The notes beneath the pieces were generated by a model. The model was not told where the DNA came from. It saw nothing but the letters and a program-made list of their open reading frames with translations, and ran no database searches. Below, one piece after another: positions 12,990 to 43,508 of a stretch of DNA of 60,871 nt. The DNA is from an uncultured Methanosarcinales archaeon (GTDB lineage: Archaea; Nanobdellota; Nanobdellia; Woesearchaeales; GW2011-AR4): NCBI GenBank assembly GCA_964611745.1, contig CAZTBE010000002.1:1-60871 (forward strand), given 5' to 3'. Both the position numbers and the translations under genes were made by a program. Numbering within the stretch: position 1 is the stretch's first letter; each line of letters opens with the position of its first letter.

Positions 12990-13085
12990 TTTACTTTAAT
13001 TTTTAGTAATAAGAATATATTTAAATAGGTTATCCTTTTCCGTAGCCATTCGTCAATGAACTCCAAAACTACCGCCTAATATATC

Positions 13086-13138: not shown

Positions 13139-13185
13139 CGCATACAATTAAATTACATTAAAACCGAATCAGAGCCAAAACGAAA

Positions 13186-14337: not shown

Positions 14338-14400
14338 GAAGATGGCTTCCTGGGCGGAGGTAAAGGATTAAATTTTGCAGTTAAAATGATTTCTCATAAG

Positions 14401-14410
14401 TTTTAAATAG
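14401..14410 (+). promoter_or_regulatory. archaeal-type TATA-like box for a near-leaderless transcript
   Basis: TTTTAAATAG is centred about 28 nt upstream of ATG 14433, with no ribosome-binding site between. Confidence 0.35.
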
Positions 14411-14432
14411 TGTAATTGAGTTCTGACACTAT

Positions 14433-15155: not shown

Positions 15156-15185
15156 TAAAAAAGCTTATTTTTCTGTTAGACGCAG

Positions 15186-16238: not shown

Positions 16239-16244
16239 TTTATG

Positions 16245-16637
16245 TTAAACCAACTTGAATTTTTTTGTATGATCTGAAAAATTTTGCGTATCTCTTTGTC
16301 CCGTAGTTAGGTTGAGCATGACAGAATCTTCCAAAAATCTCATTGCATGGGCTATCATAGGTGGTGTTATAACTAAGTCTCCAGCATTAATAATCGTCTT
16401 CTCTATTTTTTCATCCTTATTGTTCAGGTTTTTGGTGGTGCTTTCATATTTGCCGCTAATCAGGTATTCATACTGTACTTGTTTAGGATGATAGTGATTT
16501 GCTCTGATAGAGCCTTTTTTTGAGGTGATGATTGCAATATGTGTTATTGGCTCTTCTAGAATATTTGCTATTACTCCCCTTTCATCCTCAAATGCAGGTT
16601 CAATTTTTATTACTTTTTCATTAGCCATCTGTTCCAC
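16245..16637 (-). CDS. small cupin, sugar-nucleotide keto-isomerase/epimerase-like (FdtA/WxcM-like)
   Basis: 130 aa. DERGVIANIL, HYHPKQ, AHAM cupin His pattern. GGGGGTGG ribosome-binding site upstream. Confidence 0.55.
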   Translation of the reverse strand: MEQMANEKVIKIEPAFEDERGVIANILEEPITHIAIITSKKGSIRANHYHPKQVQYEYLISGKYESTTKNLNNKDEKIEKTIINAGDLVITPPMIAHAMRFLEDSVMLNLTTGQRDTQNFSDHTKKFKLV

Positions 16638-16699
16638 CCCCGTCCAAATCCTAATTTTTGGTCAAATCTTTATATAATATTACAATTTTTTATTTAAAT

Positions 16700-21522: not shown

Positions 21523-22785
21523 TTATGCTAGGTGATATGCTATGCTTATAATAGAAATAATATTTAGTACTACAAAAGATGCGATGTAGAAGTGCAGGAA
21601 TTTTTCCCTGTAGATCTTTTTGACAAAGTTGTAGAATCCAAGCGTGAAGAATATGGATATTGCTGCTATTGCAGGATAGAATAATTTGCCGTGTGGTTGG
21701 AAGTCTTGAAATAGATTGTAAGACAAAATTGAAGAACCTATAACAAAAATTTGAAAGATGAACAGTAAGAAGGCTTTTTTCTGGAAATCGTTTAGTATGC
21801 TCCTGTTTTTTAAATATCTCTTAAAGAGTCTGTAGAGTCCGAACAGGGAAATTATTGTTATTATCGCGAAGAATATAAACGTAGCCAAAAAAACTATAAT
21901 TCCAGATATAGAAGTGAGGTTTCCTATGAAAATCTGGTTATATACTCCAAAAGCAGCCCAGAAATTAAGGAAAGACCATCCTACGAGTCTAATAAAAAAT
22001 AATAAGCTAATTTGAGCCTCATAAGGTGTGTGGGCAATCCTTAGAGCATTTACTCCTAAAAAATCTCCATAAAGTATGAAATTTCTAATTAAATACCAAC
22101 CAGATAAAACCAGGACTATCAATGCAATAATTGTCATTGGCTTTATCATCTTTTTAATATTTGAATAGTATCTAATCAGAAATGCAAGGGGTATTGTAAG
22201 TATGGTAGAAAAAGTACTTATCCTTGTTAATAAGGATGCAGCTGTAATTATACCCAGTAGCATTAGGATTTTATTATTTTCCCCTCTTGATAAGATAATT
22301 AAGAGCAAATAGATGATTATAGTTGAGAACAAATGCGCAAGTGAAGCATTAGTTACTGAAGTGTTCCAATTAATAAACGTTGGAAGGAATGAAGCAAAAG
22401 TTACGACTCCGAGGACAAATGTTTTATCCTGGAAGAGCAGTGAAGCTATCTTGTAAACAAAATATAATGTGAACATACTGACAATTACAGATAAAAGCCT
22501 TATGGAGAACACCTGAACCTCAAGATTCTGAGAGAACATTTTAACTACTCCTAAGATTAAGGCAGCAAATGTGTGAAACAAGGGCGGATGAAATGCCTCC
22601 CCCCTTTCTCCTGGCTGCACAACATGCAGCTTTTTAGTATCATAAAGCAATTCTATATACTCAAAATGCTGCTTCTCATCAGGTTTTTCAAAAATAGGAA
22701 CAACTGCCGGAATTGAATATACTATCCTGAAAAAAAGCGCCAATATCAGGATCAATATCAAAACTTTTTTATGATTCATTTTCAA
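21523..22785 (-). CDS. GT-C-like polytopic membrane protein (DE..H loop type)
   Basis: 420 aa, almost entirely hydrophobic. EKPDEKQHFEY loop and FHPPLFH motif. Confidence 0.65.
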   Translation of the reverse strand: MKMNHKKVLILILILALFFRIVYSIPAVVPIFEKPDEKQHFEYIELLYDTKKLHVVQPGERGEAFHPPLFHTFAALILGVVKMFSQNLEVQVFSIRLLSVIVSMFTLYFVYKIASLLFQDKTFVLGVVTFASFLPTFINWNTSVTNASLAHLFSTIIIYLLLIILSRGENNKILMLLGIITAASLLTRISTFSTILTIPLAFLIRYYSNIKKMIKPMTIIALIVLVLSGWYLIRNFILYGDFLGVNALRIAHTPYEAQISLLFFIRLVGWSFLNFWAAFGVYNQIFIGNLTSISGIIVFLATFIFFAIITIISLFGLYRLFKRYLKNRSILNDFQKKAFLLFIFQIFVIGSSILSYNLFQDFQPHGKLFYPAIAAISIFFTLGFYNFVKKIYREKFLHFYIASFVVLNIISIISIAYHLA

Positions 22786-22936: not shown

Positions 22937-24439
22937 ATGAAGTTCCTATTTGTAATTAAGGATACCTTTGCGATTGAAAGAATCGGCTTGATGACACTAT
23001 CTTCAATTCTAAAGAAAGCAGGGCATGAAACTGATGTTGTCATGACAGAAAAAGAAGATATCTATAAGAGGATGGATGAATATAATCCTGATTTTCTTTG
23101 CTATACTATAACTACTGGAGAGCACCAATACTTCCTTGACTTAAATAGGGAATTAAAAAAGAAATATAAATTTTTAAGTCTTTTTGGTGGCATACATGCT
23201 ACATTTGTTCCAGAGACTATTGAAGAGGAAGGTGTAGACTGTATATGCCGGGGTGAAGGTGATGACGCAATCCTAGAGTATGTTAATGCTATCAGAGACG
23301 GGAAGCCTTATGACAATATCAAAAACTTATGGGTTAAAAGGCCTGATGGGAGCATAGCTAAAAATGAGATGAGAGATTTAATTTCTGATTTGGACAGGAT
23401 ACCTTTTCCGGATAGGGAGATACTTACAAAAAGAGATCCCACATTAAGAAACATTAAGACAAGAGTATTCTTTATGGGAAGAGGTTGCCCGTATAAATGC
23501 ACTTATTGTTTCAATACCGGATACAACAAATTGAGTGAAGGCAAAGGCAATATAGTCAGGATGAGGAGTGTTGATAATGTCATAAAAGAGATTAAAGAAG
23601 TTTATGAAAAAGAAAAAATAGAATGCGCGCATTTTTATGATGATACCTTTACGCTTGCTGGCAAACCCTGGTTAAGAGAATTTGCGAAAAGAATGAAAGA
23701 AGAAATAGGGATACCATTTGTATGCAATGTAAGGCCTAACACGATTGATGAAGAGATGGTGCAAATCCTAAAGAGCGGCGGATGTTATACTGCCTGGATG
23801 GGTGTTGAAACTGCCGATGATGAAGTAAGAAATGGATTATTAAAAAGAGAATTATCAAAAGAGGATATGTTAAATGCCTGCAGATTATTCAGAAAATATA
23901 AAATAAAAACCGTGCCGCAGATTATGCTTGGGCTTCCAACTAAAGACACATTCAAAAAGGATTTAGAGACATTAAGGTTTTGCATAAAGCTAAAACCTAC
24001 TTTTGTATGTTCGTCTATCTTTTATCCTTACCCATCAACAGAGCTTTATGATTATAGCATAAAAAATGGATATTTTGATCCGAATAACTTTACGCTTGAA
24101 AGCAATAAGATATCATCTCCCCTAAATTTTGATGAGAAGACCAAAAAAAAGATAGTGAATCTGCACAAATTATTTGGAGTTACTGTTGCATTTCCATTCT
24201 TATACCCTTTAACCAAGGTTTTAATTAAATTACCTTTTTATAAATTATATTCCTTAATATTTTTTGGGTGGTATGGATTTATGTATCATATTATACTAAG
24301 GCCAAATAAAATGAGTGTTGGTCAATTTAAAGACTTATTTAAAGCGTTTTTATCTCTTTTTGGTTCTTTAAAGGACCTCAATAAAACTGATAACAGGAGT
24401 ATTAAACCAGACAAAAAATCTAAAGTAGCAAGTAACTGA
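22937..24439 (+). CDS. B12-binding-domain radical SAM enzyme
   Basis: N-terminal flavodoxin-like B12-type domain (FLFVIKD...LMTLSSILKKAGHE). CxxxCxxC GRGCPYKCTYC. Hydrophobic C-terminal region. Confidence 0.85.
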   Translation: MKFLFVIKDTFAIERIGLMTLSSILKKAGHETDVVMTEKEDIYKRMDEYNPDFLCYTITTGEHQYFLDLNRELKKKYKFLSLFGGIHATFVPETIEEEGVDCICRGEGDDAILEYVNAIRDGKPYDNIKNLWVKRPDGSIAKNEMRDLISDLDRIPFPDREILTKRDPTLRNIKTRVFFMGRGCPYKCTYCFNTGYNKLSEGKGNIVRMRSVDNVIKEIKEVYEKEKIECAHFYDDTFTLAGKPWLREFAKRMKEEIGIPFVCNVRPNTIDEEMVQILKSGGCYTAWMGVETADDEVRNGLLKRELSKEDMLNACRLFRKYKIKTVPQIMLGLPTKDTFKKDLETLRFCIKLKPTFVCSSIFYPYPSTELYDYSIKNGYFDPNNFTLESNKISSPLNFDEKTKKKIVNLHKLFGVTVAFPFLYPLTKVLIKLPFYKLYSLIFFGWYGFMYHIILRPNKMSVGQFKDLFKAFLSLFGSLKDLNKTDNRSIKPDKKSKVASN

Positions 24440-29146: not shown

Positions 29147-30859
29147 ATGTGTATGAGGATTAAAAGAAGTTATATTGAAGCAGGTATATTTATTGCAGTT
29201 TATTTATTTGCTATTTATGTATGGACATTGCCTTTCCAGGACAATAGAACTCCTTATGGAGAATGGGATGCTATATCGCATTGGGAACTAGGAGATTTTA
29301 TAGCCCAATATGACCAGACATTTGTATATTTACCTGGTTTCCTTGATTATTCTTATGGGGGAGATAACAATTATAAACCTCACACATTGTGGTATCATCC
29401 ACCTTTCCATACTGATTTTGCCATAATATCTGCATTTTCTAATGATAGGATGGTGCCTATATTCCTTACAAATGCAATATTTGCAAGCGCCATATTGATT
29501 TCGGTTTTTTTTGTCATAAACAGATTGTTTGGGTTTCTGCCAGCGATATTGTCGTCTTTTATGCTTACTTTTTCAATGAGGGATATACTGCCTTACCTGT
29601 GGGGGCAATGGCCTGAGAGGTTTGCCTATGCTTTCATTCCTTTAGTCTTATATTGTTTTTATATGTATTATATCAGTTATTCCAGAGAAAAAAACAAACC
29701 AATTTACTTGTACATAATGTCTCTGCTTCTTGCTATTAATGTGTTTATACATCCATTGGTTTTCTTCCATACTTTAATCGGTATTTTTGTACTGGGTGTA
29801 ACTTTAGCAATAAAACTGAGAAAAATGCCATTTAATCTAAAGCATATAAGCATTTTCTTACTACTTTTTCTGGTCTTGTTTGCAGTCTTCCCTTACCAAA
29901 CCGGCAATGTCATTGTTTCTTTTACCAAAAGCTCTACTCCGGAAGAAAGCAAATACCCATTAATCTCCAGATTACTGCAATGGGCTCCGAACCCCAGGGA
30001 TTTTGTTGGTTCAGTTCCAGGAACATACTTTTCTTTTGAGCAGATGATTGGCTATTGGGGATTTTTGGATGATAGCAAGTCACAAGGAATTAATTCAGAT
30101 TCGCCTTTTTTTAAGAAATTATCCGTAAATATAACAAACCTGCTTTTTATCTTTCTTGTTATCGGCATAGCAATCCTATTTTTAAGAAAAGAACAGAGAG
30201 ATATTTTTCTTTTGGCATGGCTAATTAGTTTATACCTTGTTTTACACAGAGATTTAATCGGAAAATTTACTTTCCTGCACAGATCTCTTTCTGCAACAGC
30301 GCATATATTTATACCAATAATTGTTATTGGAGCACTTTCTATATCTTCACTGATTAAAATACCAAAAATGTATAGATCTTTATTGAAGTATGTGATAGCT
30401 GTTTTAATTGTTGCATTTACACTTATGTATAATATGCCTTTTGCATTCTCTACGCTTGATAATGCTTATAATTCACCTTTAATAAGGCTTAATCCTGCAC
30501 AAATTGAGGTCAGCGAGTGGTTAAAGGATAATATTCCTGAAGACCGCAATGTTTCTATAATAGGAACACCAGAGCAATTAGATAAGAAAGTTTGGTGGAT
30601 GGCCTCTTATTCTCATCGTGTAAGCCATTATTTTGAAGGATTTTTTACATGGTCCTCTGAGGATGAGGAAACTAAACAGAGAATTGCCAGTGGCCACCTG
30701 TTAAGCGATTATGTGGTTTTTGATTACTCTGACATAGCCTTGTTAAGTGACAGGAGTTTTGTTGAACGATGGCTGGAATTTGAGCAACGAAACATGGCAA
30801 ATCATACATTATTGTATAATAAAGATAATATGAAGGTGTATAAATATGAATCTTCTTAA
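29147..30859 (+). CDS. GT-C-type polytopic membrane protein with C-terminal soluble domain (paralogue of 35125..36843)
   Basis: 570 aa. YGEWDAISH loop, WYHPPFH, LWGQWP. After the last TM: EWLKDNIPE...VWWMASYSH. Confidence 0.6.
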   Translation: MCMRIKRSYIEAGIFIAVYLFAIYVWTLPFQDNRTPYGEWDAISHWELGDFIAQYDQTFVYLPGFLDYSYGGDNNYKPHTLWYHPPFHTDFAIISAFSNDRMVPIFLTNAIFASAILISVFFVINRLFGFLPAILSSFMLTFSMRDILPYLWGQWPERFAYAFIPLVLYCFYMYYISYSREKNKPIYLYIMSLLLAINVFIHPLVFFHTLIGIFVLGVTLAIKLRKMPFNLKHISIFLLLFLVLFAVFPYQTGNVIVSFTKSSTPEESKYPLISRLLQWAPNPRDFVGSVPGTYFSFEQMIGYWGFLDDSKSQGINSDSPFFKKLSVNITNLLFIFLVIGIAILFLRKEQRDIFLLAWLISLYLVLHRDLIGKFTFLHRSLSATAHIFIPIIVIGALSISSLIKIPKMYRSLLKYVIAVLIVAFTLMYNMPFAFSTLDNAYNSPLIRLNPAQIEVSEWLKDNIPEDRNVSIIGTPEQLDKKVWWMASYSHRVSHYFEGFFTWSSEDEETKQRIASGHLLSDYVVFDYSDIALLSDRSFVERWLEFEQRNMANHTLLYNKDNMKVYKYESS

Positions 30860-31181
30860 AATTGAAAATCTTGGATTTATAGGAATTATTGCAGCTGTGG
30901 TGCTTGTTTTTTTCTATTTTATACTGGGTTTTTCAGGAATGATGGCAGTTTTAGGCATTATGCTTCTGTTTATTTTTCCGATTTATCTCATACTTGATAA
31001 CTTTGACTTAAAACAAGATGAGAAAATAGTATTTTCATTCTTTTTAGGCGTGGGAATTTTCCCGTCTTTGGTATATTGGCCAGCTACTGTTATATCCTTG
31101 AGGTTATCTATTGTTATTAGTTTTGTAATATTGGTTGTTGTGGCTTATTTGGTTAGGAAATTCTATAAGAAAAAATCTTAA
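30846..31181 (+). CDS. small polytopic membrane protein coupled to the preceding GT-C gene
   Basis: 111 aa, 3-4 TM segments. Overlaps the upstream stop by 14 nt. Weak collinear similarity to 34776..35165 (LFIFPIYL vs LFVLPGYF). Confidence 0.55.
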   Translation: MNLLKIENLGFIGIIAAVVLVFFYFILGFSGMMAVLGIMLLFIFPIYLILDNFDLKQDEKIVFSFFLGVGIFPSLVYWPATVISLRLSIVISFVILVVVAYLVRKFYKKKS

Positions 31182-31205
31182 TGGAAATAAAATCATATAA
31201 AAGAT

Positions 31206-31222
31206 AAATTTTAAATATGCAC
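31206..31222 (+). promoter_or_regulatory. TATA-like box plus conserved TGCAC (shared promoter 17-mer, copy 1)
   Basis: AAATTTTAAATATGCAC lies about 40-50 nt upstream of ATG 31261. It matches 45332-45348 at 16 of 17 positions. Confidence 0.4.
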
Positions 31223-31260
31223 GTTAATTTAACGGCGCAGATAGAAGTTCAAATAAAAAT

Positions 31261-31956
31261 ATGAAAAGACCAAAATCTTTGTCTATACTTATACCCTGCT
31301 ATAATGAAGAGGACAATATAAGGGAGTGTATAAAGAGAATACCTTCTATGAGATGGAAGACTGAGGTAATAGTTATAGATGATGGCAGCAGCGATAAAAC
31401 GACACAGTTTGCTAAAGGGGTAGGATACAGGGGCAGGCTGAAGACAATCCATTATAAACCTAATAGGGGCAAAGGGCATGCTGTCAGGAAAGGCCTGGAA
31501 GCTGCCAGGGGAGATGTTGCTATAATTCTTGATGCTGATATGTCATCCCCACCAGAGGAGATACCTTTAATTGTAAAGCCGATTTTTGAAGGCAAAGCTG
31601 ATTTTGTGAATGGAACCAGGTTAGTCTATCCGATGGATAAAGGAGCAATGAAATTAATCCATATACCAGGCAATAGGATATTTGCGTTGTTGGTGTCGAT
31701 GATTGTAGGGAAATACCTTACTGATTCTTTATGCGGATTTAAGGCTTTTAAAGTAAAACCATTTGCGAGAAAATTAAAAGAGGATAGTTGGCCTGATTTC
31801 GAGTTGCTTATAAAAGCAAAAAGAATGGGCATGAAAATAGTTGAAGTTCCTATACATTACAAGGTAAGAGTAGGAGGGGTTTCTAAGATGAAGACAATTA
31901 GGCATGGTTATAACATGCTGAATATGCTCCTAAGAAGCTTAAAGAAAGATTACTAA
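31261..31956 (+). CDS. GT2, polyprenyl-phosphate sugar synthase-like
   Basis: ILIPCYNEEDNI, IDDGSSD, LDADMS. 231 aa. Confidence 0.85.
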   Translation: MKRPKSLSILIPCYNEEDNIRECIKRIPSMRWKTEVIVIDDGSSDKTTQFAKGVGYRGRLKTIHYKPNRGKGHAVRKGLEAARGDVAIILDADMSSPPEEIPLIVKPIFEGKADFVNGTRLVYPMDKGAMKLIHIPGNRIFALLVSMIVGKYLTDSLCGFKAFKVKPFARKLKEDSWPDFELLIKAKRMGMKIVEVPIHYKVRVGGVSKMKTIRHGYNMLNMLLRSLKKDY

Positions 31957-31971
31957 ATATGAACTATGAAC

Positions 31972-33072
31972 TTATTTTTTACCTATTTTCTTAAAATAAT
32001 CCTTATTTTTTAAAGTTATATTTAATTTCAGTTCATTAATGTAAAATTCAATTATTTCGTTGAAAATATAATCAAGGTCTTTGGTTAGTTTCCATGAAGG
32101 ATAATCTTTCCTGAACTTAGACATATCTGAAATCCACCACATATGGTCTGACTCACGGTCTTGGGCTTCTTCATATTCAAGCTTCATAGAGGTTTTAGCT
32201 TCTATTGCATCAATGGTTTCAAATATTGATATTGAATTTTTTCTCTCGCCTCCTAAGTTATAAGGCTCCCCATAAAGCCCATTAGCATTAGGTTTTGGCT
32301 TTTTTATGAATTCATATATTACCGAGGCAACATCAGAGCTATGGATTTGATCCCTTACTCTATACCCTCCACCATAAATGAAATATTTCTTTTTGGTTAA
32401 TGCGCATTTGATTATATACGGCAGGTATCCATGCAGTTCCACTGCTCTTGAATTTTTTCCAGTTAGGCAACCGCCTCTAAAGGTTGCAGTCTTTAGGCCG
32501 TAATTAATACCATACTCCTGGGCATAGATATCCGCAGCAAGCTTTGATGCTCCAAAAGGAGTATGCCCGCACCTATCTACTGCCAACTCTTCGTTAAAAC
32601 TGTCGCATGCTGGATTTTCGTATCTTTTTCCTACAATCTTATACTTAAAATTATTGGGCTGGTCGCCGTAAACCTTATTTGTTGACATAAAAGCAAAAGG
32701 AATATCAGTGTTAAGCTGCCTTGTAAGCTCAAGAAGCTGTAATGTGCCAAAGGCATTTATCTGGAAATCTTCCATTGGAATTTCCATGCTTTTAGGATGA
32801 GATGGCTGGGCTGCAAGATGAACAACAGCATCAACTTTCTTGATAATTTTGGACATGACATCCTTGTCCCTTATATCAGCTTCTATCAACTCTAATTTAT
32901 CATTATTAGAAAGGTGGCTTTCCTCTATGTTGAGCTTATTATTTGCATCATTACCAAATAATTTTTGCCTTGTATTATTATCTACGCTGATTACTTCGTG
33001 GCCTTCTTTTAGGAATAATTCGCAACATGCGCTTCCAATAAGGCCTATTCCACCAGTAACTAAAATCTTCAT
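31972..33072 (-). CDS. extended SDR, CDP-paratose 2-epimerase-like
   Basis: VTGGIGLIGS, STNKVYGD...KY...RY, FGASKLAAD, VRDQIH. Resembles tyvelose/paratose epimerases as I recall them. Confidence 0.75.
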   Translation of the reverse strand: MKILVTGGIGLIGSACCELFLKEGHEVISVDNNTRQKLFGNDANNKLNIEESHLSNNDKLELIEADIRDKDVMSKIIKKVDAVVHLAAQPSHPKSMEIPMEDFQINAFGTLQLLELTRQLNTDIPFAFMSTNKVYGDQPNNFKYKIVGKRYENPACDSFNEELAVDRCGHTPFGASKLAADIYAQEYGINYGLKTATFRGGCLTGKNSRAVELHGYLPYIIKCALTKKKYFIYGGGYRVRDQIHSSDVASVIYEFIKKPKPNANGLYGEPYNLGGERKNSISIFETIDAIEAKTSMKLEYEEAQDRESDHMWWISDMSKFRKDYPSWKLTKDLDYIFNEIIEFYINELKLNITLKNKDYFKKIGKK

Positions 33073-33134
33073 TTTGATGCTATAAAGTTAAAGAATGTTA
33101 TTTAGAACACATTATAAACTTTTCTACAATTGTC

Positions 33135-34775
33135 TCAAGATGGTTTTTTTGTTCCTAAATTTTTTAAATATGGCTTCCAAATCATAAAAAGCAGTAAAAT
33201 CAAAACTGCCAATCCGATGAGGTTTAAAAATAATGAATTCCAGTCCATAACACCTGCCAGGGTATGCAAAAAATCCGATGAAGGTCCGTTGCTTAGGAAT
33301 TTAGATATTGCAACTAACTGTTCGTCGTTTAGTGCAGGTTGATCTAATGTATGAAGACCAGAGTATTGTGTAGATGTCCAATTTAAAAATAGGGATATGA
33401 TGCCAACAACAATGAATAATATCTTCATCTTATTTTTCTTTAGTAAATTATTATTAACAAAAATATATGGCGAAAAAATAAAAAGATAGGGGAGTATAGG
33501 TGTCATATGCCTATTAAATTCTGTTGCTATAGCTGAAGGATATGTAAATGTTAATATGGAAGCATACATGAATGTAAAGATGGCAAATATCGCTATAGCT
33601 AAAGCATCGCGGTAATAAACATCTTTTTTTATAAGTGCCCTATAGATACCATAAAATACCAAAAATATTATTGGAGAGTAAAGAAATGAATTTAACATGT
33701 AAACCAATGTATCCATACCAGGTAATTTTATATCAAAAATTCCTGATATTTTAGCGACACTTTCTGGTAAGACTGTGTAAGCATAAGATTGGGTAAATGG
33801 GTTGTCAAAGACAATGTAATAGTATGAAAATAATAGAAAAACAGGAATTGATGCACCAACAAAAAATGATAATAGCAGTGATAACTTTTGTTTATTTAAA
33901 TCAAAAATCCACAATCTTTTAAATCCTTTTGTCCTGATAGTTTTGCCCTTTATGTAGAAAGATAATAAATAAATAAACAATAATCCTGCGACAAACAGAT
34001 GAAAATAATCAAACCAAGCAGAAAGTCCTGCAAGTATGCCTGCGACAAATAATGTAGCTTTCTTTGACTTTAATTCTTTATGTCTTATCTTAAACAAAAT
34101 AATGAACGCAGCAAACATGAAGAAAATGGCTATTGGTCTTTCAAGAAATCCAGTAGCTAAAGAGAATCGTAATGTTCCAAAAGCAAAAAATAATGTTATA
34201 ACCATTCTTAACTTATCATTCTTAGTAAATCTTTTTAGAAACAGATATAGCAAAAGAACGGTTAATGCACTAAACAAAGAAGTGGTAAATAACGGAAGGA
34301 TGAATCCCGAAATAATGAGATATTCTAAAATTTGTCTTTTACTAAAACCTGGAAGGTAACTTGAAGGGATTCTTTTATTTCCGTCGTAGTCATCAGGCAG
34401 ACTAGCCCCATAGTTTTCAAGCTTTTCAAACAAAGAATTTATTATCTCTTTAGGCAAAAGATAAAAAATTGGTCTGCTTACTATATAAATAGGCACGGAA
34501 ATAAATGAAATTCCGGGGGCTTGGCCCGAGTAGTAATGATCATCATAGAATGCTATACCACCGCCAGCAACTCTATAGTATGTGTCTATCTCGAATCTGC
34601 CTTCGTTTACAATTGCGGCTGTAAGTGCAGATTGGCTATTGGCCATAGTACTTGATCCAAACATTTGCAGGTAAAAAATGTAGACAATCCAGACTGTTAA
34701 GAACAGCTTAAACTCTTTACTTCTAAAAAAATTTGATTTTATATCTAACATTTTTATTAATCTAATATTAAACAA
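33135..34775 (-). CDS. GT-C-like polytopic membrane protein
   Basis: 546 aa, mostly TM. First loop DDHYYSGQAPGISFISVP resembles the D..YS.KaPG loop of bacterial/archaeal GT-C families. Confidence 0.6.
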   Translation of the reverse strand: MFNIRLIKMLDIKSNFFRSKEFKLFLTVWIVYIFYLQMFGSSTMANSQSALTAAIVNEGRFEIDTYYRVAGGGIAFYDDHYYSGQAPGISFISVPIYIVSRPIFYLLPKEIINSLFEKLENYGASLPDDYDGNKRIPSSYLPGFSKRQILEYLIISGFILPLFTTSLFSALTVLLLYLFLKRFTKNDKLRMVITLFFAFGTLRFSLATGFLERPIAIFFMFAAFIILFKIRHKELKSKKATLFVAGILAGLSAWFDYFHLFVAGLLFIYLLSFYIKGKTIRTKGFKRLWIFDLNKQKLSLLLSFFVGASIPVFLLFSYYYIVFDNPFTQSYAYTVLPESVAKISGIFDIKLPGMDTLVYMLNSFLYSPIIFLVFYGIYRALIKKDVYYRDALAIAIFAIFTFMYASILTFTYPSAIATEFNRHMTPILPYLFIFSPYIFVNNNLLKKNKMKILFIVVGIISLFLNWTSTQYSGLHTLDQPALNDEQLVAISKFLSNGPSSDFLHTLAGVMDWNSLFLNLIGLAVLILLLFMIWKPYLKNLGTKKPS

Positions 34776-35165
34776 TTACTGGTCTTTTGTTAATCTGAAA
34801 TTGATTATGACCCCAAACAATATTAATATTAACGGAAGTACAATTGTATGGTACTTTATATTTAATCCGATTAATCCAAGATAATAGCTAAATATTCCAA
34901 TTATGGCCGCAGCTAAAGCAATACCAATTATGAACCTCTCTATAAATTCCAGCTTTTCTTTCCAGTAAAGCATTAAAAAATAACCAGGCAAAACAAACAG
35001 CCAAAATAATGATAGAGCATTTCTAAACAAAATAATTAAATTCTCTTTGAAAAATGCAATTTTAAATATAATCATGACTAATAAAAACAAAAGTCCAATA
35101 TATTTCAATTCTTTTAGTGCAGTGTTAAAAACTTCTTTCTTCAATGCAATCAGCCCCCACATCAC
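34776..35165 (-). CDS. small polytopic membrane protein coupled to the upstream GT-C gene
   Basis: 129 aa, 4 TM segments. Overlaps the 35125..36843 stop and abuts the next gene with no gap. Confidence 0.55.
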   Translation of the reverse strand: MMWGLIALKKEVFNTALKELKYIGLLFLLVMIIFKIAFFKENLIILFRNALSLFWLFVLPGYFLMLYWKEKLEFIERFIIGIALAAAIIGIFSYYLGLIGLNIKYHTIVLPLILILFGVIINFRLTKDQ

Positions 35166-36843
35166 TATTTTTCAATATGAATACGAATTGATTGTCAAAT
35201 ACAAGAGTAATAGATTCTTTTTTTAATAGTTCTTGTGCAATCAAAACATTATACTGTGCAAGAACCTCTTGCCTTGAAACTTTATCAAAAATTAAATAGT
35301 CAAATGTACAAATATCTCTAGGGCCATAAAAAAATTCCCCCGGTTTATCTTTAAAAGCATTTTCAAAATTAAAAAAACTGCTTCTTATTGGTGTTCCCCC
35401 TCCGGCATCTCCAGGAAACTCACTTATATAACTTCTTTTGATTTTTCTTTCCTGAAGAGCATTGATGAAATCACCAGGATCAACCTGGTGATGCACTCTT
35501 TTTGAGTTTCTTAGAAGCGCATCCTGATCATATATGTCCCCATAAAAAAAATAGATTATTGCATCAGGTTCAGCATTATCACTGATCCATGTTAAAGATT
35601 CCCAATGGTAAGGATCCATTATACCTTGGCTCGTTCTTGCATTGTTTTGTGGAAATGTTTTTAGAACAGATTTAAAAAGATCAGCGGAAAATGGCATGTT
35701 CTCAAGAGACATTTGCAAACTATTTTGGAACTTAACATTTTCTGGAACTATGCCTAGTATAAGAATGGTAAGGATAAGCAAGACCACTGGAGTGTAAACT
35801 GAATTCCATTTTTTTACTATAATTTTAAGAATGGCATAAATTCCAAACCCCGCAAATACTGAGAGATAGATTGGCCAGTAAAATCTTATCTGAAAAGATC
35901 TAAGTCCAAATCCTATATAGTTTAGAAAACCACTAATAAGCATTGCAAAAGCTAGAATTATAGAAGCATGTAAACTCTTTAATTTTGTCAGGGAAAAGAC
36001 AATTCCAATAATTATCGGTATTAATAATAAGCCAAACCCTATCAGGTAGAATCCCGGATTTCCATCCCATATAGGCTGAACTCCAAATTCATATGCCTGA
36101 CTTTTAGCCCATGAATTCTGAAAAATTACCAGATAATAAAACGAAATTACAAAGAAAACACCAAGGAATATTGCCGCATTTTTGATATCCTCCTTGTTAA
36201 ATTTTTTTACTAATATTTTTATACCAAAAAATAAAGCTAAGAATATCAAAGCAAATATGGCTTCCGATGTATGGGTTAATGCTATTGCTGAGAGCGATAA
36301 TGCTATGATAAGAAATGATTTATCCAGGTCTATCCTCATAATGCTCCAGGCAAATAATATAAGGAAGGATTGTGATAATACAGAGGGCCAGTGACCCCAT
36401 AAGAATCCCAATGAAAGCGGAAATGAAAAAATAAGTATTGATAAGGGGAGTGAGAGCAAAGCTACTGTTTTGTTAAAATTTCTTATTATGAGGTACATCA
36501 CAAAACTTGCAATTATTGAAAAGAATACAACTATGAAATATATTGAATCATAAACTTCTGTTCCGGATGCATATGAAAATATTGCAGCCAAATGATAAAC
36601 TACTGGAGGATAAACTCCAACAATATTTTCTACCCCTTTTTCTAGATATGGAGGCTCATACCTAAAATTTCCTATATCTTTAATAGATTCTGCCCTTATT
36701 TGATGCTGAAAAGCGTCAGATGCGCCATAAGCAAAAGGAAAGTCATGCTTAATCTTGTGGTCAAATAAAGCCCCAGGACCTGAAAAAAGTATCACTCCAA
36801 AAAAAATTATGAGTATTATTTTCTCCAGGTTTATTTTTGTCAT
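35125..36843 (-). CDS. GT-C-type polytopic membrane protein with C-terminal soluble domain (paralogue of 29147..30859)
   Basis: 572 aa. YGASDAFQH loop, VYPPVVYH, LWGHWP. C-terminal domain starts WISDNAEPD. Confidence 0.6.
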   Translation of the reverse strand: MTKINLEKIILIIFFGVILFSGPGALFDHKIKHDFPFAYGASDAFQHQIRAESIKDIGNFRYEPPYLEKGVENIVGVYPPVVYHLAAIFSYASGTEVYDSIYFIVVFFSIIASFVMYLIIRNFNKTVALLSLPLSILIFSFPLSLGFLWGHWPSVLSQSFLILFAWSIMRIDLDKSFLIIALSLSAIALTHTSEAIFALIFLALFFGIKILVKKFNKEDIKNAAIFLGVFFVISFYYLVIFQNSWAKSQAYEFGVQPIWDGNPGFYLIGFGLLLIPIIIGIVFSLTKLKSLHASIILAFAMLISGFLNYIGFGLRSFQIRFYWPIYLSVFAGFGIYAILKIIVKKWNSVYTPVVLLILTILILGIVPENVKFQNSLQMSLENMPFSADLFKSVLKTFPQNNARTSQGIMDPYHWESLTWISDNAEPDAIIYFFYGDIYDQDALLRNSKRVHHQVDPGDFINALQERKIKRSYISEFPGDAGGGTPIRSSFFNFENAFKDKPGEFFYGPRDICTFDYLIFDKVSRQEVLAQYNVLIAQELLKKESITLVFDNQFVFILKNSDVGADCIEERSF

Positions 36844-36852
36844 GCTTAAAAA

Positions 36853-39129
36853 TCACCTTTGTTGATTTTCAGGGTTCTTCATCTTTGAATAAGTAGCGTA
36901 AAATAAATATATTATCAAAACTAAAATAGTTAATAATGTTATTATTTTTCCTTTTCTAAAGGAATCTGGGTTGTACTTAAATATTAAATCTCCCACCTCT
37001 CCAGTTAAATAAACTGCGCTTATGGCACTGTCTGTTTTGTATAGTTTTAAAACACGTCCATTTATTGTTGTTTCCCATCCAGGGAAATGAGCAAATCTCT
37101 CGCTTAGGACAAGAAACCCTGTTTCCCCATCAAGAGCAATAGAAAATTCATTCACAGAAATTTCTCTTGATTTTAGCTCTTTATTGGTACTACTTGATTT
37201 AAGGATGTCTATAATTGATTCCTTTGAAATTGAGTTTTGCCCTTCAAGAAGGTTGGGCAGTATTTTTCCACCATTGTCCACATATTGCTGCAGCTTTGAA
37301 ATGTCACTTTGTGTTACAGAATCCTTTAGTAATATAACGCTATTGAAATTTTTTAATTCATCAATATCATGGTCCGCTATGGCGCTTTTTCCCTCTATTA
37401 ATGCGGTTGATAATGGATCTAGGTTTTCTAATATAAGACTATAAGAAAAATCTCTTTTATCATTATCATTACCCAGCACTAAAATGCTATTATTCACAAT
37501 AAAGGCTCTCGGGATTACATTCTTGTTTTCGTAAAGATATGGCCCAGATGGTTCTGTAGGAACACAATCTTCACATTTCTGGAACCTTTGTTTTAATGAA
37601 AGACCAGAATCATCGATTTCCCTATCAGATATAATATATTTGCCATTTAAGATTCCAAACATCTTTGAAGGAGCTGCTTGTTGCGCAATAGCCAGATACT
37701 GTACATAGTCATTTATCCAGATTCCACCACCACCTTTAATTGCAGGTATGCCAAGCTGTGAGTAATAATTATAACCAGATGCGCCTATAGGTGTTGATAA
37801 TGCATAAGTTGCGATTCTAAAATCACTTTGGTCTTTACTTATTTCATTTAGAGTTGGTACATCTTTTGGTTTTACAACCTCGACAGATGCTGGAAATTTG
37901 TATGATGATGCCAATTCAATGACTAAGATTGCTAATATAATTGAAAATATAAGCCCTTCTTTGATATTTTTTTTATATTTTTTTAGAATACTGACTAAAT
38001 TGCTGAATCCATAGGCAATTATAATTGGAGACGCAAAAACGAACATTACTAAAGCGCGTTCAATATGCCTCATCTGTCCAAAACCTGGAAGCTGATAGAA
38101 AAATTTTGTAACAAATGTTCCTGAAGCAAGCAATACGGACAGTACCATCAGAAGAATAGAGAACATAACAATTTTTTTTCTAAAAGACAGTAAACCAAAT
38201 AATAAGAGTATCAGGGAAGTAATGCCTATTGCTCCGGAAAATCCACTGCTGTCTGACAAATTGACCAGATGACCCCATAAGCTGCCTAAATTTATCGGAT
38301 ATCCGAGATATTCCTGGTAATTTACTCCAGAAGCCCTGCTGGACATTTTTGTGAATTCAAGAACAGGCAACAGCTTTAATGCAGACAAACCAACCAATAA
38401 AATGCCTATAACCAGGGAGACAAGTATTGCTTTTACAATCCTTTTTTTGAAGTTGTTTCCTATCAAATTCCAGGCAATATATAATCCAATTATTAATCCG
38501 GTATAAAGAAAGAATATCATCCCTCCAGCATAAATCATCATTGAAAAGAATAAAGCAGCGATTATGGAGTTATTCAGCCATGACTTTTTATTCAATGCCC
38601 TGTATGTGAAGAGGAAGACAAAAGGCATAAGGGAATAACTTTCTACAATATTAAGATGTCCTGCAAGAGCAAATTTTTGTATAACTCCATTGAACATGAA
38701 AATTAAGGATGCAATAAATGCAATGTTCTGTTTTCTTAATATTTCATAAATAAGAAGGTACATTCCTAATCCAGCAAGAAAAAAATAACTTATTACTGCA
38801 AGATTCATTGCAAGGAATATATTCTTGAATAATAAAATGTACAGAAAATTAAGATCAAATAAGTAATGTTCCGGAATTGCCATGAATGGCTCTCCGCTGT
38901 AGAAATAAGGAGTCCAGAGTGGAAATACTCCAAACTCATGCAGACTCTTCCTTATATTCTCTGACTGGAAGGTCATATCGTTTATGTAATGTATATTACC
39001 GAATATTCTTGAAGAACTTAATATGCTCGAAAAAAAAATCAGAGTTATAAGGAGCAACAAAAAAATATAAAAATGCTTTTTTACCAGATATTTTGATTTA
39101 GAGATAATCAATTCCTTTTTCATTGTCAC
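36853..39129 (-). CDS. large polytopic membrane protein, YfhO-like GT-C candidate
   Basis: 758 aa. N-terminal loop FPLWTPYFYSGEPFMAIPEH resembles YfhO family proteins. Large extracytoplasmic domain and a C-terminal TM anchor. Confidence 0.55.
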   Translation of the reverse strand: MTMKKELIISKSKYLVKKHFYIFLLLLITLIFFSSILSSSRIFGNIHYINDMTFQSENIRKSLHEFGVFPLWTPYFYSGEPFMAIPEHYLFDLNFLYILLFKNIFLAMNLAVISYFFLAGLGMYLLIYEILRKQNIAFIASLIFMFNGVIQKFALAGHLNIVESYSLMPFVFLFTYRALNKKSWLNNSIIAALFFSMMIYAGGMIFFLYTGLIIGLYIAWNLIGNNFKKRIVKAILVSLVIGILLVGLSALKLLPVLEFTKMSSRASGVNYQEYLGYPINLGSLWGHLVNLSDSSGFSGAIGITSLILLLFGLLSFRKKIVMFSILLMVLSVLLASGTFVTKFFYQLPGFGQMRHIERALVMFVFASPIIIAYGFSNLVSILKKYKKNIKEGLIFSIILAILVIELASSYKFPASVEVVKPKDVPTLNEISKDQSDFRIATYALSTPIGASGYNYYSQLGIPAIKGGGGIWINDYVQYLAIAQQAAPSKMFGILNGKYIISDREIDDSGLSLKQRFQKCEDCVPTEPSGPYLYENKNVIPRAFIVNNSILVLGNDNDKRDFSYSLILENLDPLSTALIEGKSAIADHDIDELKNFNSVILLKDSVTQSDISKLQQYVDNGGKILPNLLEGQNSISKESIIDILKSSSTNKELKSREISVNEFSIALDGETGFLVLSERFAHFPGWETTINGRVLKLYKTDSAISAVYLTGEVGDLIFKYNPDSFRKGKIITLLTILVLIIYLFYATYSKMKNPENQQR

Positions 39130-40552
39130 TCCATAACTTTAAGGTGTCATGAGCCCACTTGAAAGGTTTATCATTTTTTTCTATTAATTTTGAAACTACA
39201 GAAATAAGTTTTTTGCCTACATTGCTGCCATAGATCTTTTTTGAGGATTCCATCTGCTTTCTTAAGCCATCATTATTGATAATATGCTTTACCATATCAA
39301 CAATTATCTCTTTGCTTGCAGGAGGCACAATTATATTACTTCTTGCATCAAATACAGTTTCCGGACGGTCTGTTGTCAATCTGCATGTCATGCATGTTTT
39401 GCCAATAAGATTGAGCTCTTCCTGGACTCCACCAGAGTCTGTTAAAGCAGCAATGCATTTATCTGATTCAAAGAATTCAATTACATGCCCATATTCAGGC
39501 CATACACTTGTATAAAGAAAATTCTTCTTTTTCTTTAGCTTCTCAAGCTCTTTTCTTAAACCATAGAAATCAAGGGCCATTCTTGTCGCACTCATCTCTA
39601 TAAAATTGATGTTGTGCCCTTTTTTGACTAGCTCTTTTATTGCTTTGATTATTGATTTAAATCTTATTGGAGTGAGATTTTCTCTTCGGTGTATGTCTAC
39701 CCGTATCCAGTTATCTTTTTCAAGCTGAGGGTAAATGCTAAATATGCTCTTTTCCGGCTTTATTTTTCTTTTAAGCTCCAATGCATCAACAACAACACCG
39801 CCTATGACCCATATATTCTCTTCAGGGTAACCCTCTCTTAAAAGATGGTCTTTGTTGAGTTGGACAGGAGCGAAATGATATTGGGAACCGGCAGCAGAGG
39901 TGAAAGTGTCCCATTGCTCTGGGAATGGCTCATTCCTCATAAGTATCCATCTGCCATAGAACTGTTGATCAATGAATGTTTCTGTGTCTACTTTATTGTA
40001 TCTTTTCATCACTTCCGGAGTCATACTTCTCAAGCCAGCTTCATTCTGTATTGCCTTCTCGGACCTGGAAAACATCCAGGCAGCCGGAACAATGCTGGTC
40101 ATTATAGTATCTCCTAATACCACGGGAATTACAGTCACACCAGGCCAGTTTTTCTTCAAATGTTTTGCGAACCATGATATTTTTATCATCAACTCTGCTG
40201 ATTTCTGAGCTAAATCACCCCTTATGGATAAGTTGGATGCAATCTTGTTCTGAAAATTGAATTCTTTGATGCCATGAGTTAAGATATCATCATAATGCTG
40301 GTTTGAGTTGATAATAAAAAAAGGAATTTTAGATTTCGCTGCAGCTACTATGCTTCCATAAAATTTATAGAAACAGGGTTTTGTTCCAATCACAAAAGCA
40401 AGAACCCATTTTCGCTCTTTTTTTGCCTGCTCCATTACACCTTTAATCAATGGCTTGTTTAGAGTTAATGGCAGGATTGTAGGCATAAAATGGTCTGCTT
40501 CTGTAGCTGTTTCTGCTCCAAACATCGATTCGTATGCGTCTTTCATTACCAT
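39098..40552 (-). CDS. UDP-N-acetylglucosamine 2-epimerase-like (WecB-fold) enzyme with N-terminal extension
   Basis: 484 aa. TDSGGVQEE motif characteristic of the epimerase_2 family. Confidence 0.7.
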   Translation of the reverse strand: MVMKDAYESMFGAETATEADHFMPTILPLTLNKPLIKGVMEQAKKERKWVLAFVIGTKPCFYKFYGSIVAAAKSKIPFFIINSNQHYDDILTHGIKEFNFQNKIASNLSIRGDLAQKSAELMIKISWFAKHLKKNWPGVTVIPVVLGDTIMTSIVPAAWMFSRSEKAIQNEAGLRSMTPEVMKRYNKVDTETFIDQQFYGRWILMRNEPFPEQWDTFTSAAGSQYHFAPVQLNKDHLLREGYPEENIWVIGGVVVDALELKRKIKPEKSIFSIYPQLEKDNWIRVDIHRRENLTPIRFKSIIKAIKELVKKGHNINFIEMSATRMALDFYGLRKELEKLKKKKNFLYTSVWPEYGHVIEFFESDKCIAALTDSGGVQEELNLIGKTCMTCRLTTDRPETVFDARSNIIVPPASKEIIVDMVKHIINNDGLRKQMESSKKIYGSNVGKKLISVVSKLIEKNDKPFKWAHDTLKLWSDNEKGIDYL

Positions 40553-41597: not shown

Positions 41598-43508
41598 ATG
41601 ATAGAAATCTTTTACTTTATTTTTGTTGTATTAGTTGCAGTTGCATTAGGGCAAAGAATTTTGAAGATAATTGGTGCAAAATTTGATTCTGATATTCTAA
41701 GATTTATATTCTCTTTTCCATTGGGATTGGCAGTTTTAGCCTACGCTGCTTTTTTTTTGGGGCTTGCAGGTCTGTTATATAAATCAATATTTATCTCAAT
41801 TTTATTACTTATACTTATTATTTTGATAAAAGATATCATAAAGATAATATCAACATTATTTGCTTTTGTTAAAAATATCAATCAAAAAAACGTTAGGAAG
41901 CGGAAGTTAGGATTTAATTTCTTCACTATTCTGCTTTTGTTTTTATTGTTATTTGTAGTACTTAATTTTATCATCAGTTTTTCTCCCCCATGGAATAATG
42001 ATGCATTAGCATATCATCTAGCTGTTCCAAAGATATATATTGAAAATCATAAGATTATAGACATACCACATATTTTTTACTCAAACTTTCCTTCGCTAAT
42101 TGATATGATAAGCATGATAGGACTTTTGCTTCACAGCGGCATTTTAAGCCATCTTTTTGCATATGCATTGGGTATTACATTGATACTGGCAATCTACTCT
42201 TTCTGCAAAAAATTCTTTAATCCAAGAGTTGCAATTTTAGCTTCTTTGATTTTCTATAGTTTTCCAATGGTTATTGAGTTTGTATCAACTACCTATATAG
42301 ATATTCAACTGGCATTATTTGTTTTTTTGTCAATCTATGGGCTGTTTATATATTTTACTTCAAAAAAGAATTCGTGGCTTTTCTTATCCGCAATCTTTAT
42401 AGGATTTGCAATTTCATCAAAAGTTTTTGGCATCATAGGTGCAATAGGCATTTTAATTTTATTAGCACATAACTTGTTTTTAAGGTTAGTAAAGAGTGAG
42501 ATTAATTATAAGGATGTATTTTTTAAAATATCAATTTTTTGTTTAATCGCATTTGTAATAACCATGCCCTGGTTAGCGAAGAGTTATTTCTTTACCGAGA
42601 ATCCTGTTTGGCCATTCTTCAATAGCTTTTTTGGTGGAAAATATTGGGATGAAGAACATCAAGAGTATCAAGAAAAGGATGTTTCTGGAAGAGAACTAAG
42701 CATCGTTAACTACATAAAGTTGCCCTGGGATTTGCATGTGCAAATAGTTGAGTGGGAGGATGAACTTGATATTAGAATGGATAGAAATCTTCAAGAAGGA
42801 GAGCATTTTGGACCATTTCTTATATTTTTACTTTTTTATTTTTTCTTCAGGAAAAAGAATAAAATTTTAAATACCCTCTTTTTTTTTATATTTGTTTATA
42901 TAACCTTGTGGTTTTTTATAGCCAATATCGGAAGGTATTTACTTTATCTTGCACCTTTGGTAGCAATAATCTCTTCTTATGTCATAATAGAATTATTCAA
43001 AAATAAGTATCTTTCAAAAGTCTTAAAGATTCTGCTAATATTCACTTTTAGCTTCAATCTTCTAATATGGGTTGGAGGAAATGCTAAAGATATGCTTGTA
43101 CCTCTTGGATTAGAATCAGAAGACAGTTTTTATGAAAGACAAGCCCCCATATATAAGCCATCTAAGTTTATTAACTCTAATCTTCCAGGGAACTCAAGAA
43201 TACTTCTTGTTAGAGAAGTAAAGGGGTTTTTCTTGGAAAGGGACTATGTTTGGGATAATCCATCAACACAGGTTTATATTAATCACTCTAAATTTAAAAA
43301 CGAAAAAGATTATTATGAAGAGCTAAAAAAATTAGGAATAACCCACATATTAGTCAATGATGGATCATTTGCTAAATATAGGGGTTTTACAGTTAAAGAA
43401 GAAACTTATCTTGCTGAAAAAGTTTTTAATATTACAAACAATTTATTGGAAAAATATACTACAAATCTTTATAACAAAGATAACTGGCTGGTCAATGAAA
43501 TAAAATGA
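41598..43508 (+). CDS. GT-C-like polytopic membrane protein with C-terminal soluble domain
   Basis: 636 aa. PPWNNDALAYHL first-loop motif, more than 10 TM segments, soluble C-terminal region of about 150 aa. Confidence 0.65.
   Translation: MIEIFYFIFVVLVAVALGQRILKIIGAKFDSDILRFIFSFPLGLAVLAYAAFFLGLAGLLYKSIFISILLLILIILIKDIIKIISTLFAFVKNINQKNVRKRKLGFNFFTILLLFLLLFVVLNFIISFSPPWNNDALAYHLAVPKIYIENHKIIDIPHIFYSNFPSLIDMISMIGLLLHSGILSHLFAYALGITLILAIYSFCKKFFNPRVAILASLIFYSFPMVIEFVSTTYIDIQLALFVFLSIYGLFIYFTSKKNSWLFLSAIFIGFAISSKVFGIIGAIGILILLAHNLFLRLVKSEINYKDVFFKISIFCLIAFVITMPWLAKSYFFTENPVWPFFNSFFGGKYWDEEHQEYQEKDVSGRELSIVNYIKLPWDLHVQIVEWEDELDIRMDRNLQEGEHFGPFLIFLLFYFFFRKKNKILNTLFFFIFVYITLWFFIANIGRYLLYLAPLVAIISSYVIIELFKNKYLSKVLKILLIFTFSFNLLIWVGGNAKDMLVPLGLESEDSFYERQAPIYKPSKFINSNLPGNSRILLVREVKGFFLERDYVWDNPSTQVYINHSKFKNEKDYYEELKKLGITHILVNDGSFAKYRGFTVKEETYLAEKVFNITNNLLEKYTTNLYNKDNWLVNEIK

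Follow-up and report, generated by a model that had tools for sequence, protein, structure and literature searches.

Two anciently paralogous pairs of a GT-C-type membrane protein gene and a small membrane protein gene in a glycan island of a woesearchaeal genome

Two pairs of overlapping genes for membrane proteins

The DNA considered here is a stretch of 60,871 nt (contig CAZTBE010000002.1, positions 1 to 60,871 of the forward strand, GenBank assembly GCA_964611745.1; hereafter the window), deposited as an uncultured Methanosarcinales archaeon and assigned by GTDB to the Woesearchaeales, and it carries two copies of a module composed of a large gene (A) and a small gene (S), both encoding multi-transmembrane (TM) proteins. 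A1 (29147..30859, plus strand) is an open reading frame (ORF) of 570 aa, with a likely start at ATG 29153 that would leave 568 aa, and its product is a predicted GT-C-fold membrane glycosyltransferase; it is followed on the same strand by S1 (30846..31181), which encodes a four-TM membrane protein of 111 aa. On the minus strand lie A2 (35125..36843, 572 aa), a distant paralog of A1, and S2 (34776..35165), another four-TM protein whose longest ORF of 129 aa begins at GTG 35165. The four ORFs are those of an initial annotation, which described them as an inverted duplication of a two-gene module and regarded the small protein as the dedicated partner of a distinct GT-C subfamily.

In both modules the small gene begins within the large one. 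The overlap between A1 and S1 is 14 nt, and a Shine-Dalgarno-like GAAGGTG lies inside A1 about 7 nt upstream of the ATG of S1. For A2 and S2 the overlap depends on the start codon chosen, being 41 nt from GTG 35165, 38 nt from ATG 35162 and 20 nt from TTG 35144; public gene calls use either ATG 35162 (128 aa) or TTG 35144 (122 aa). As the consensus of the homologs starts with MKKEVF and a G-rich GTGGGGG is found upstream, TTG 35144 (122 aa, MKKEVF...) is the probable true start of S2, and the identical 20-nt overlap is found in many related loci.

Assignment of the large proteins to the GT-C superfamily comes mainly from structure prediction. An AlphaFold2 model of A1 built from 13 sequences (predicted local distance difference test, pLDDT, 66; predicted template-modelling score 0.68) shows a first TM helix (residues 7-26), a long and poorly modelled first loop, another 10 or so TM helices and, at the C-terminus, an alpha/beta domain predicted to be extracytoplasmic, for a total of about 11 TM helices. 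In a Foldseek search of this model against the PDB the top 22 matches were all GT-C enzymes (prob 1.0, E 1e-8 to 5e-3, TM-score around 0.4), among them STT3, the AglB of A. fulgidus, DPY19, PglB, ArnT, AftA, Pmt4 and ALG9. The modelling thus bears out the GT-C assignment made for A1, and A2, which has the same architecture (TM1, YGASDAFQH loop, LWGHWP, about 10-11 TM helices and a soluble domain at the C-terminus), would share the fold through its homology to A1 over 459 alignment columns, described below. Residue D41 of the invariant PYGE-DA-SH motif, in the first external loop that follows TM1, is the same, as is E39, in 13 diverse A1 homologs, and the YGASDAFQH motif of the A2 family has its Asp in the matching column; an acidic residue in this loop is typical of catalysis by GT-C enzymes.

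At the sequence level the signals are fainter. Against the Pfam model DUF6541 (PF20176; gathering threshold 29 bits) A1 scores 28.5 bits over profile positions 99-544, just under the threshold, and A2 scores 22.6 bits over positions 151-336, also under it. Most A1 orthologs carry a precomputed PF20176 match and some carry PMT_2 (PF13231); their annotations read hypothetical, "GT39 family" or, in one case by NCBI, "DUF6541 family protein". PMT_2 gave no match at E<1 in A1 or A2 of the window, and ArnT and Pmt4 appear as fold matches of A1. The A1 profile found no match among PDB sequences, and a tblastn search of A2 against plasmids found none either. The large proteins are, in summary, new members of a known superfamily.

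One proposed resemblance found no support. The C-terminal domain of A1 contains the string KVWWMASYSH, in which W484, A486 and S489 are invariant, and its VWWMASYSH had been likened to the WWDYG motif of STT3/AglB oligosaccharyltransferases; however, the string lacks the Asp of WWDYG, has no counterpart in A2, whose aligned segment is unrelated, and neither A1 nor A2 matches the STT3 Pfam model at E<1.

Three motifs are common to the small proteins: P-x-Y near the start of TM2, E-[KR] ahead of TM3 and Y-x-x-G where TM3 ends. The S1 type has P-x-Y in TM2 and E-K before TM3, and the S2 type has FWLFxLPGY in TM2, E-R before TM3 and SYYxG. An AlphaFold2 model of S2 from 28 sequences (pLDDT 84) consists of four helices (residues 2-37, 43-68, 74-99 and 106-127). 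Because the C-terminus of S1 is strongly basic (RKFYKKKS), its sequence suggests an N-in/C-in topology. When the S2 profile was searched against 1.84 billion representatives it retrieved 357 clusters (50% identity), of which 250 had E<=1e-10, and the best 150 of the 357 are all stand-alone proteins of 81-190 aa.

No described relative of this family was found in the resources consulted. Neither Pfam nor NCBIfam has a family for S, as searched with S1 and S2 of the window. GtrA (PF04138), SMR/EamA and DUF2304 were absent from the recurring Pfam matches of 45 S1, 39 S2 and 150 S2-family sequences, with E values up to 0.1-1 considered; the DUF2304 model (PF10066) would have detected a member, since a genuine DUF2304 protein encoded elsewhere in the window scores 1.4e-22. 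The S profile found no relative among PDB sequences, and the S2 model has no structural neighbour in the PDB, Foldseek returning six matches with a best E of 8.6 and no EmrE-type protein among them.

Ancient paralogy and conserved pairing of the modules

To compare the two modules as families, we collected 47 species-level genome loci with relatives of A1, extracted all their ORFs (2746) and defined four families by single-sequence phmmer, with 49 A1, 45 S1, 39 A2 and 39 S2 non-identical sequences. Family profiles were required because pairwise BLASTP was too weak: between A1 and A2 it gave a marginal match (E 8e-4, 26% identity over 103 aa around LWGxWP), and between S1 and S2 nothing significant. 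Profile-profile alignment with hhalign, on the other hand, matched the A1 and A2 families with a probability of 98.4% and an E of 4e-15 over 459 collinear columns, pairing YGEWDAISH with YGASDAFQH, WYHPPFH with VYPPVVYH, LWGQWPE with LWGHWPS and WLKDNIPED with WISDNAEPD. The motifs that had been seen as collinear in both large proteins, including the W(L/I).DN opening of the C-terminal domain, are therefore all in register. Likewise, the S1 and S2 families aligned with a probability of 95.3-95.5% and an E of 1.5-2.1e-8 over 110-111 columns, that is, essentially their full length, with FPIY paired to LPGY and E-K to E-R. The likeness of the two small proteins that the initial annotation had noted thus holds at the profile level, although BLASTP does not detect it.

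Hidden Markov model (HMM) searches of the 2746 ORFs agreed with these alignments. The S1 HMM retrieved nine S2 members (best 5e-8) and the S2 HMM eleven S1 members, and otherwise neither had any match outside its own family. As a control, the S1 and S2 profiles were aligned with those of the A1, A2, 758-aa and 546-aa membrane protein families, the last two encoded beside the modules, and all these comparisons stayed below 5% probability, which also rules out S as a piece or internal repeat of a GT-C protein encoded nearby. Given the family-profile matches, the reciprocal HMM matches and the negative membrane controls, A1 and A2, like S1 and S2, are by profile comparison true and very old paralogs.

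The inverted duplication that had been proposed therefore stands as deep protein-level paralogy of two convergent modules, but not as a local duplication event. At the DNA level there is no repeat, only short AT-rich chance inverted matches, and each module has its own separate orthologs in other genomes (A2 orthologs in other loci have 48-51% identity), so that a recent inverted duplication is ruled out. By the same alignments and gene orders, S and A were duplicated together and each S stays beside its own A.

The arrangement is conserved well beyond this genome. Both modules are orthologously kept in about 45 genomes of Woesearchaeota/Nanoarchaeota, and A1 has more than 270 homologs in these lineages. 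S1 lies directly after A1 in 45 of 47 non-redundant loci, the window counted, and the two genes overlap by 4-22 nt in 43 of those 45. Of the two exceptions, one is a contig that ends 200 nt past A1; the other, locus L053 (4772..6310), has the most divergent A1 homolog (35% identity, in a Woesearchaeota genome of 53% GC) and no S1 gene downstream despite 2.9 kb of contig beyond. The latter locus is a possible natural test case for independence from S or for a relocated S. In the second module S2 comes immediately after A2 at each of 38 loci, and once over-long ORF calls are corrected the genes overlap in all of them, by 8-38 nt.

In most loci the modules converge tail to tail, with the stop codons of S1 and S2 no more than about 50 nt apart, and an ortholog of a 758-aa protein gene precedes A2 in about 35 loci, forming a conserved block of 758-aa gene, A2 and S2. 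The pairing extends to distant lineages: in L056 (44% GC) and L059 an A2-like gene followed by S2 faces an S1 preceded by A1, and in L057 and L058, from a 60% GC lineage, an A2-like gene is followed by S2. Overall, A-S pairing spans lineages of 32-60% GC while the flanking genes vary. The A2-S2 module of L058 has two bona fide STT3 genes at a distance of 3 kb, from which it follows that A2-S2 does not replace AglB there. These adjacent genes (12457..15846 and 15874..17692) encode giant STT3 (AglB) proteins of 1129 and 1042 aa with FKBP_C peptidyl-prolyl isomerase domains, an unusual oligosaccharyltransferase-chaperone fusion.

The initial annotation had named two outcomes as speaking against a dedicated partnership, namely a lack of significant similarity between the small proteins and a lack of co-occurrence outside this genome. 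The similarity between the two families is in fact significant, and other genomes show the co-occurrence overwhelmingly. The initial annotation had suggested archaeal and candidate phyla radiation genomes for such an analysis; the genomes recovered are only archaeal, labelled Woesearchaeota/Nanoarchaeota. A few of them carry the name "uncultured Methanosarcinales", in all likelihood a label that arose in binning. The A-S module is real and widespread in DPANN archaea, and from its context and weak profile matches we infer its function in the next section.

The surrounding island and the role of the small protein

The initial annotation had the two modules facing each other across a family 2 glycosyltransferase (GT2) gene and an SDR gene, as is the case here, but a third gene also lies between them. 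The GT2 gene (31261..31956, plus strand; Pfam Glycos_transf_2, 1e-29) is of the AglJ/DPM1/ArnC type, its best NCBIfam models being AglJ, dolichyl-phosphate hexose transferase and ArnC, all under their equivalog cut-offs; on these matches it is a candidate polyprenyl-phosphate-sugar synthase that could supply a lipid-linked donor. The next gene, on the minus strand (31972..33072), encodes an SDR-family NAD-dependent sugar-nucleotide epimerase/dehydratase (Pfam Epimerase, 3e-41; RmlB/GalE-like in NCBIfam, under cut-offs). The gene that had been overlooked (33135..34775, minus strand, a 546-aa ORF whose real start is probably an ATG near 34751) encodes a third GT-C-like membrane protein with about 9 TM helices, a match to the NCBIfam LA_3751/LA_3752 putative glycosyltransferase family (8e-18) and a weak Pfam PMT match. 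It lies directly downstream of S2, with stop and start codons abutting, and occupies the same position in 7 related loci. Since the stops of S1 and S2 are nearly adjacent in most loci, the 3.6-kb insert formed by these three genes is local variation. Upstream of A2, the 758-aa gene (36853..39129, minus strand) encodes a GT-C-like membrane protein of the YfhO/PTPS_related type (Pfam PTPS_related, 1e-12), and its family is distantly related to both A1 and A2 (hhalign probability 84-88%).

The whole 60-kb window is one glycan-biosynthesis island, with a GC content of 29-37%, no match in tRNA and Rfam scans, and proteins identical to "hypothetical proteins" from marine (Tara) Woesearchaeota assemblies. 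It contains about 8 multi-TM GT-C-like genes (11346..12989, 19932..21419, 21523..22785, A1, 33135..34775, A2, 36853..39129 and 41598..43508), at least 5 short GT2 genes of the DPM1/AglJ type, genes of the GT4 and GT9 families and numerous sugar-nucleotide enzymes. Among its multi-TM proteins none could be recognised as a flippase of the Wzx, MATE or GtrA type. Three B12-binding radical SAM enzymes (22937..24439, 43703..45253 and 45382..46800, plus strand) and two C-methyltransferases (10052..11302 and 16700..17920) suggest unusual methylated or otherwise modified sugars. The DUF2304 protein used above as a reference (56968..57300, minus strand; 110 aa, E 1.4e-22) is a small membrane protein of the GacJ family whose gene is flanked by a GT9 gene (55765..56967) and an aminoglycoside-N-acetyltransferase-like gene (57393..58292), with no GT2 neighbour, unlike the characterised GacI/GacJ pairs. 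Other genes of the island include 4193..6115 (plus strand), encoding a 640-aa protein with about 4 TM helices at its N-terminus and a sulfatase/phosphodiesterase domain, a layout that, here in an archaeon, resembles LtaS or a phosphoethanolamine transferase, and 39098..40552 (minus strand), encoding a WecB-like UDP-GlcNAc 2-epimerase in which the match is confined to residues 206-452. The N-terminal extension of the latter, of about 200 aa, has no family match, and the gene shares about 30 nt with the start of the 758-aa gene.

Regarding function, the gene arrangements and profile matches tip the balance, by a modest amount, towards S being a dedicated and translationally coupled membrane subunit of its cognate GT-C enzyme. 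By analogy with other GT-C enzymes, each A would be an integral-membrane glycosyltransferase that moves a sugar from a dolichyl- or polyprenyl-phosphate-linked donor onto an acceptor at the external face of the membrane, using the conserved Asp of the first external loop (PYGE-D-A in A1, YGAS-D-A in A2) as the putative catalytic base. Each S, a four-helix protein of about 110-125 aa, would be translated from the start codon within the 3' end of its A gene, so that translational coupling could fix the proportion in which S and its own A assemble into a heteromeric enzyme; there S may contribute to stability, or to forming the lipid-donor site. The lipid-linked donors would plausibly come from the AglJ/DPM1-like GT2 enzymes scattered in the same island, and the acceptor would probably be a cell-surface glycan or glycoprotein. 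A dedicated partnership is argued for by the adjacency of the genes, their overlaps, the pairing in distant lineages, the co-duplication and the Shine-Dalgarno-like GAAGGTG inside A1. The partnership that had been proposed is therefore in keeping with adjacency and overlap at 45 of 47 and 38 of 38 loci, but the accompanying suggestion of a carrier or flippase-like protein found no match to a transporter family or fold.

Further evidence comes from the way in which the proteins of the module cover DUF6541. Among the S2-type proteins, 8 of the 39 from the loci and 27 of the 150 representatives match this profile weakly, with a best E of 3.3e-5, and in the five cases inspected TM2-TM4 of S always aligned to profile positions 3-73 (3-64 once). 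S2-type proteins also match DUF1616 (PF07760) weakly, in 23 of 39 and 22 of 150 cases, over the first 90-120 profile positions, and there is a single match, with E 1.8e-5, to the N-terminal region of the DUF6077 profile (PF19554). Because S2 types cover positions 3-73 of DUF6541, A1 positions 99-544 and A2 positions 151-336, S and A tile one Pfam architecture, which provides a Rosetta-stone type of argument for a physical association between A and S. S would then be the free-standing counterpart of the N-terminal TM module of full-length DUF6541-type proteins, a part of the chain that in Woesearchaeota may be a separate polypeptide.

Several observations weigh against this subunit model. The matches of S to DUF6541, DUF1616 and DUF6077 are all under the gathering thresholds and could partly reflect TM composition, and no fused S-A protein was found among the best 150 of the 357 S2 representatives. 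Moreover, the 45 S1-type proteins scanned have no DUF6541 match, and the genes run from A to S although the profile places the S part first. The confidence of the A1 model is moderate (pLDDT 66), with TM-scores of about 0.4. Finally, with no recognisable flippase in the island, there is a vacancy that S could fill.

That vacancy leads to the alternative that S is a small flippase for lipid-linked sugars, an analogue of GtrA, ArnE/ArnF or Rv3789 that feeds dolichyl-phosphate-sugar to the cognate GT-C enzyme as the third component beside a GT2 synthase. We regard it as rather unlikely, yet it has real arguments in its favour: the size and topology of S (about 110-130 aa, 4 TM) are those of the small proposed flippases of GT-C operons (PMC11127046), GT2 genes of the AglJ/DPM1/ArnC kind stand next to the modules, the multi-TM proteins of the 60-kb island include no recognisable Wzx, MATE or GtrA, and S has a conserved charged E-K/R at the membrane boundary. 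Nevertheless, the 45 S1, 39 S2 and 150 S2-family sequences show no GtrA, EamA/SMR or other transporter among their recurring Pfam matches, and the S2 model has no structural neighbour in the PDB, nor any EmrE-type protein among its six matches. What distinguishes a subunit from a transporter here is that S is coupled to and co-duplicated with a GT-C gene and not with a donor synthase, that S and A tile a single DUF6541 architecture, and that S stands beside only 2 of the roughly 8 GT-C-like genes of the island, leaving six without it.

Two other explanations appear much less probable. The predicted fold could be read as placing A1 and A2 among divergent AglB/STT3-like oligosaccharyltransferases for N-glycosylation, with S as the archaeal counterpart of small oligosaccharyltransferase (OST) subunits, as the best Foldseek matches of the A1 model are STT3 and the A. 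fulgidus AglB (E 1e-8 to 1e-7) and A1 has the WWMAS string in its C-terminal domain. However, the TM-scores are about 0.42 and those for ArnT, DPY19, AftA and Pmt4 are similar, homologs are labelled PMT_2/GT39, no OST small subunit is matched by the S2 model, and A2-S2 coexists with two bona fide STT3 genes in a related lineage (L058); together with the missing STT3 match at E<1, the absence of WWDYG and the unrelated A2 segment, these points make the proposal quite improbable. The other explanation, the least credible of all, is that S is functionally unrelated to A and is kept adjacent through operon compaction in a streamlined DPANN genome. DPANN genomes are indeed compact and have many overlapping genes, but here adjacency and overlap are kept in about 45 species-level genomes of 32-60% GC amid variable surroundings, each S was co-duplicated with, and remains beside, its own A, and the two tile on DUF6541.

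More tentatively than the subunit role itself, we propose that archaeal GT-C enzymes have, in S, an obligate small membrane subunit that belongs to a new and widespread family (at least 357 clusters at 50% identity) and might help to capture or translocate the dolichyl-phosphate-sugar donor. GT-C enzymes make cell-surface glycans in all domains of life and, outside eukaryotes, are generally treated as single-subunit enzymes; to our knowledge, no prokaryotic GT-C heteromer with a dedicated non-catalytic TM subunit has been known before. If the proposal is correct, S would be a new component of archaeal surface glycosylation and a large orphan family lacking a Pfam model would acquire a function. 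It would also explain a possible failure of heterologous expression of such GT-C genes alone, and, should S capture or translocate the donor, it would give access to the long-sought step in which dolichyl-phosphate-sugars are flipped to the outer leaflet. DPANN archaea have an episymbiotic lifestyle that depends on the cell surface, and within a DPANN glycan island that is otherwise variable, the 758-aa GT-C-like gene, A2 and S2, facing S1 and A1, form a conserved core.

Comparison with known systems

Neither Pfam, NCBIfam, the PDB nor the searchable literature, the last queried for DUF6541 and for GT-C with Woesearchaeota or with DPANN, returned a description of this module or a characterised example of A-S pairing, in agreement with the initial annotation, which knew of none; as far as these sources show, a conserved and co-duplicated small partner of this kind is undescribed. 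With regard to the families that S2-type proteins match weakly in their N-terminal TM regions, DUF1616 (PF07760) and DUF6077 (PF19554), both are archaeal or uncharacterised membrane protein families and have an additional 200-250 residues beyond S; one DUF1616 protein, HVO_2173, is known solely as an N-glycosylated membrane protein (PMC8241124).

Systems of three components provide the likeness in gene content. In GtrA/GtrB/Gtr*, CsbB/GtcA/YfhO, ArnC/ArnE-F/ArnT and Rv3806c/Rv3789/Aft-Emb, the genes for a GT2-type polyprenyl-phosphate-sugar synthase, for a GT-C enzyme and for a small membrane protein (about 110-130 aa) lie together, and GtrA or the SMR-like Rv3789 have been proposed as small flippases (PMC11127046). 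S differs from these in having no detectable relation to GtrA or SMR/EamA and in being translationally coupled to its GT-C gene, alongside which it was duplicated. The flippase of Gtr-type systems goes with the synthase, and more than one GT-C enzyme shares it.

The logic of a small multi-TM partner beside a glycosylation enzyme, as proposed here for S and A, is also that of GacI-GacJ and PpgS-Rv3632. GacJ (DUF2304), which is small and has three TM helices, joins the GT2 enzyme GacI in a complex and stimulates it, and some lineages have the two as one fused protein (10.1101/180810). The partner in those pairs, however, serves a cytoplasmic GT2 donor synthase and not a GT-C enzyme, and S is not a DUF2304 protein.

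As for the large proteins, A1 resembles the GT-C_A class (ArnT, PMT, STT3-AglB and DPY19) in its multi-TM N-terminal domain, the acidic residue in its first loop, its C-terminal extracytoplasmic domain and its predicted fold, without a sequence-level match to solved GT-C enzymes. Compared with AglB/STT3, the A proteins of the window are shorter (about 540-570 aa, with about 11 TM helices) and lack WWDYG. In contrast to characterised GT-C families, each A gene of the window has an overlapping gene for a small four-TM partner, and we know of no such partner for the ArnT, PMT, STT3-AglB or DPY19 families.

Small membrane subunits are familiar from multi-subunit GT-C enzymes of eukaryotes, such as OST with Ost2/DAD1, Ost4 and Ost5, or glycosylphosphatidylinositol (GPI)-mannosyltransferase I, in which PIG-M is accompanied by PIG-X; we are aware of no description of such a subunit in a prokaryotic GT-C enzyme. 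S has no sequence or fold similarity to any small-subunit chain in the PDB, and the likeness lies instead in the composition of these enzymes, a GT-C catalytic subunit with small dedicated membrane subunits, and in the predicted fold of the large protein, as the structures of OST and GPI-mannosyltransferase I are among the Foldseek matches of A1.

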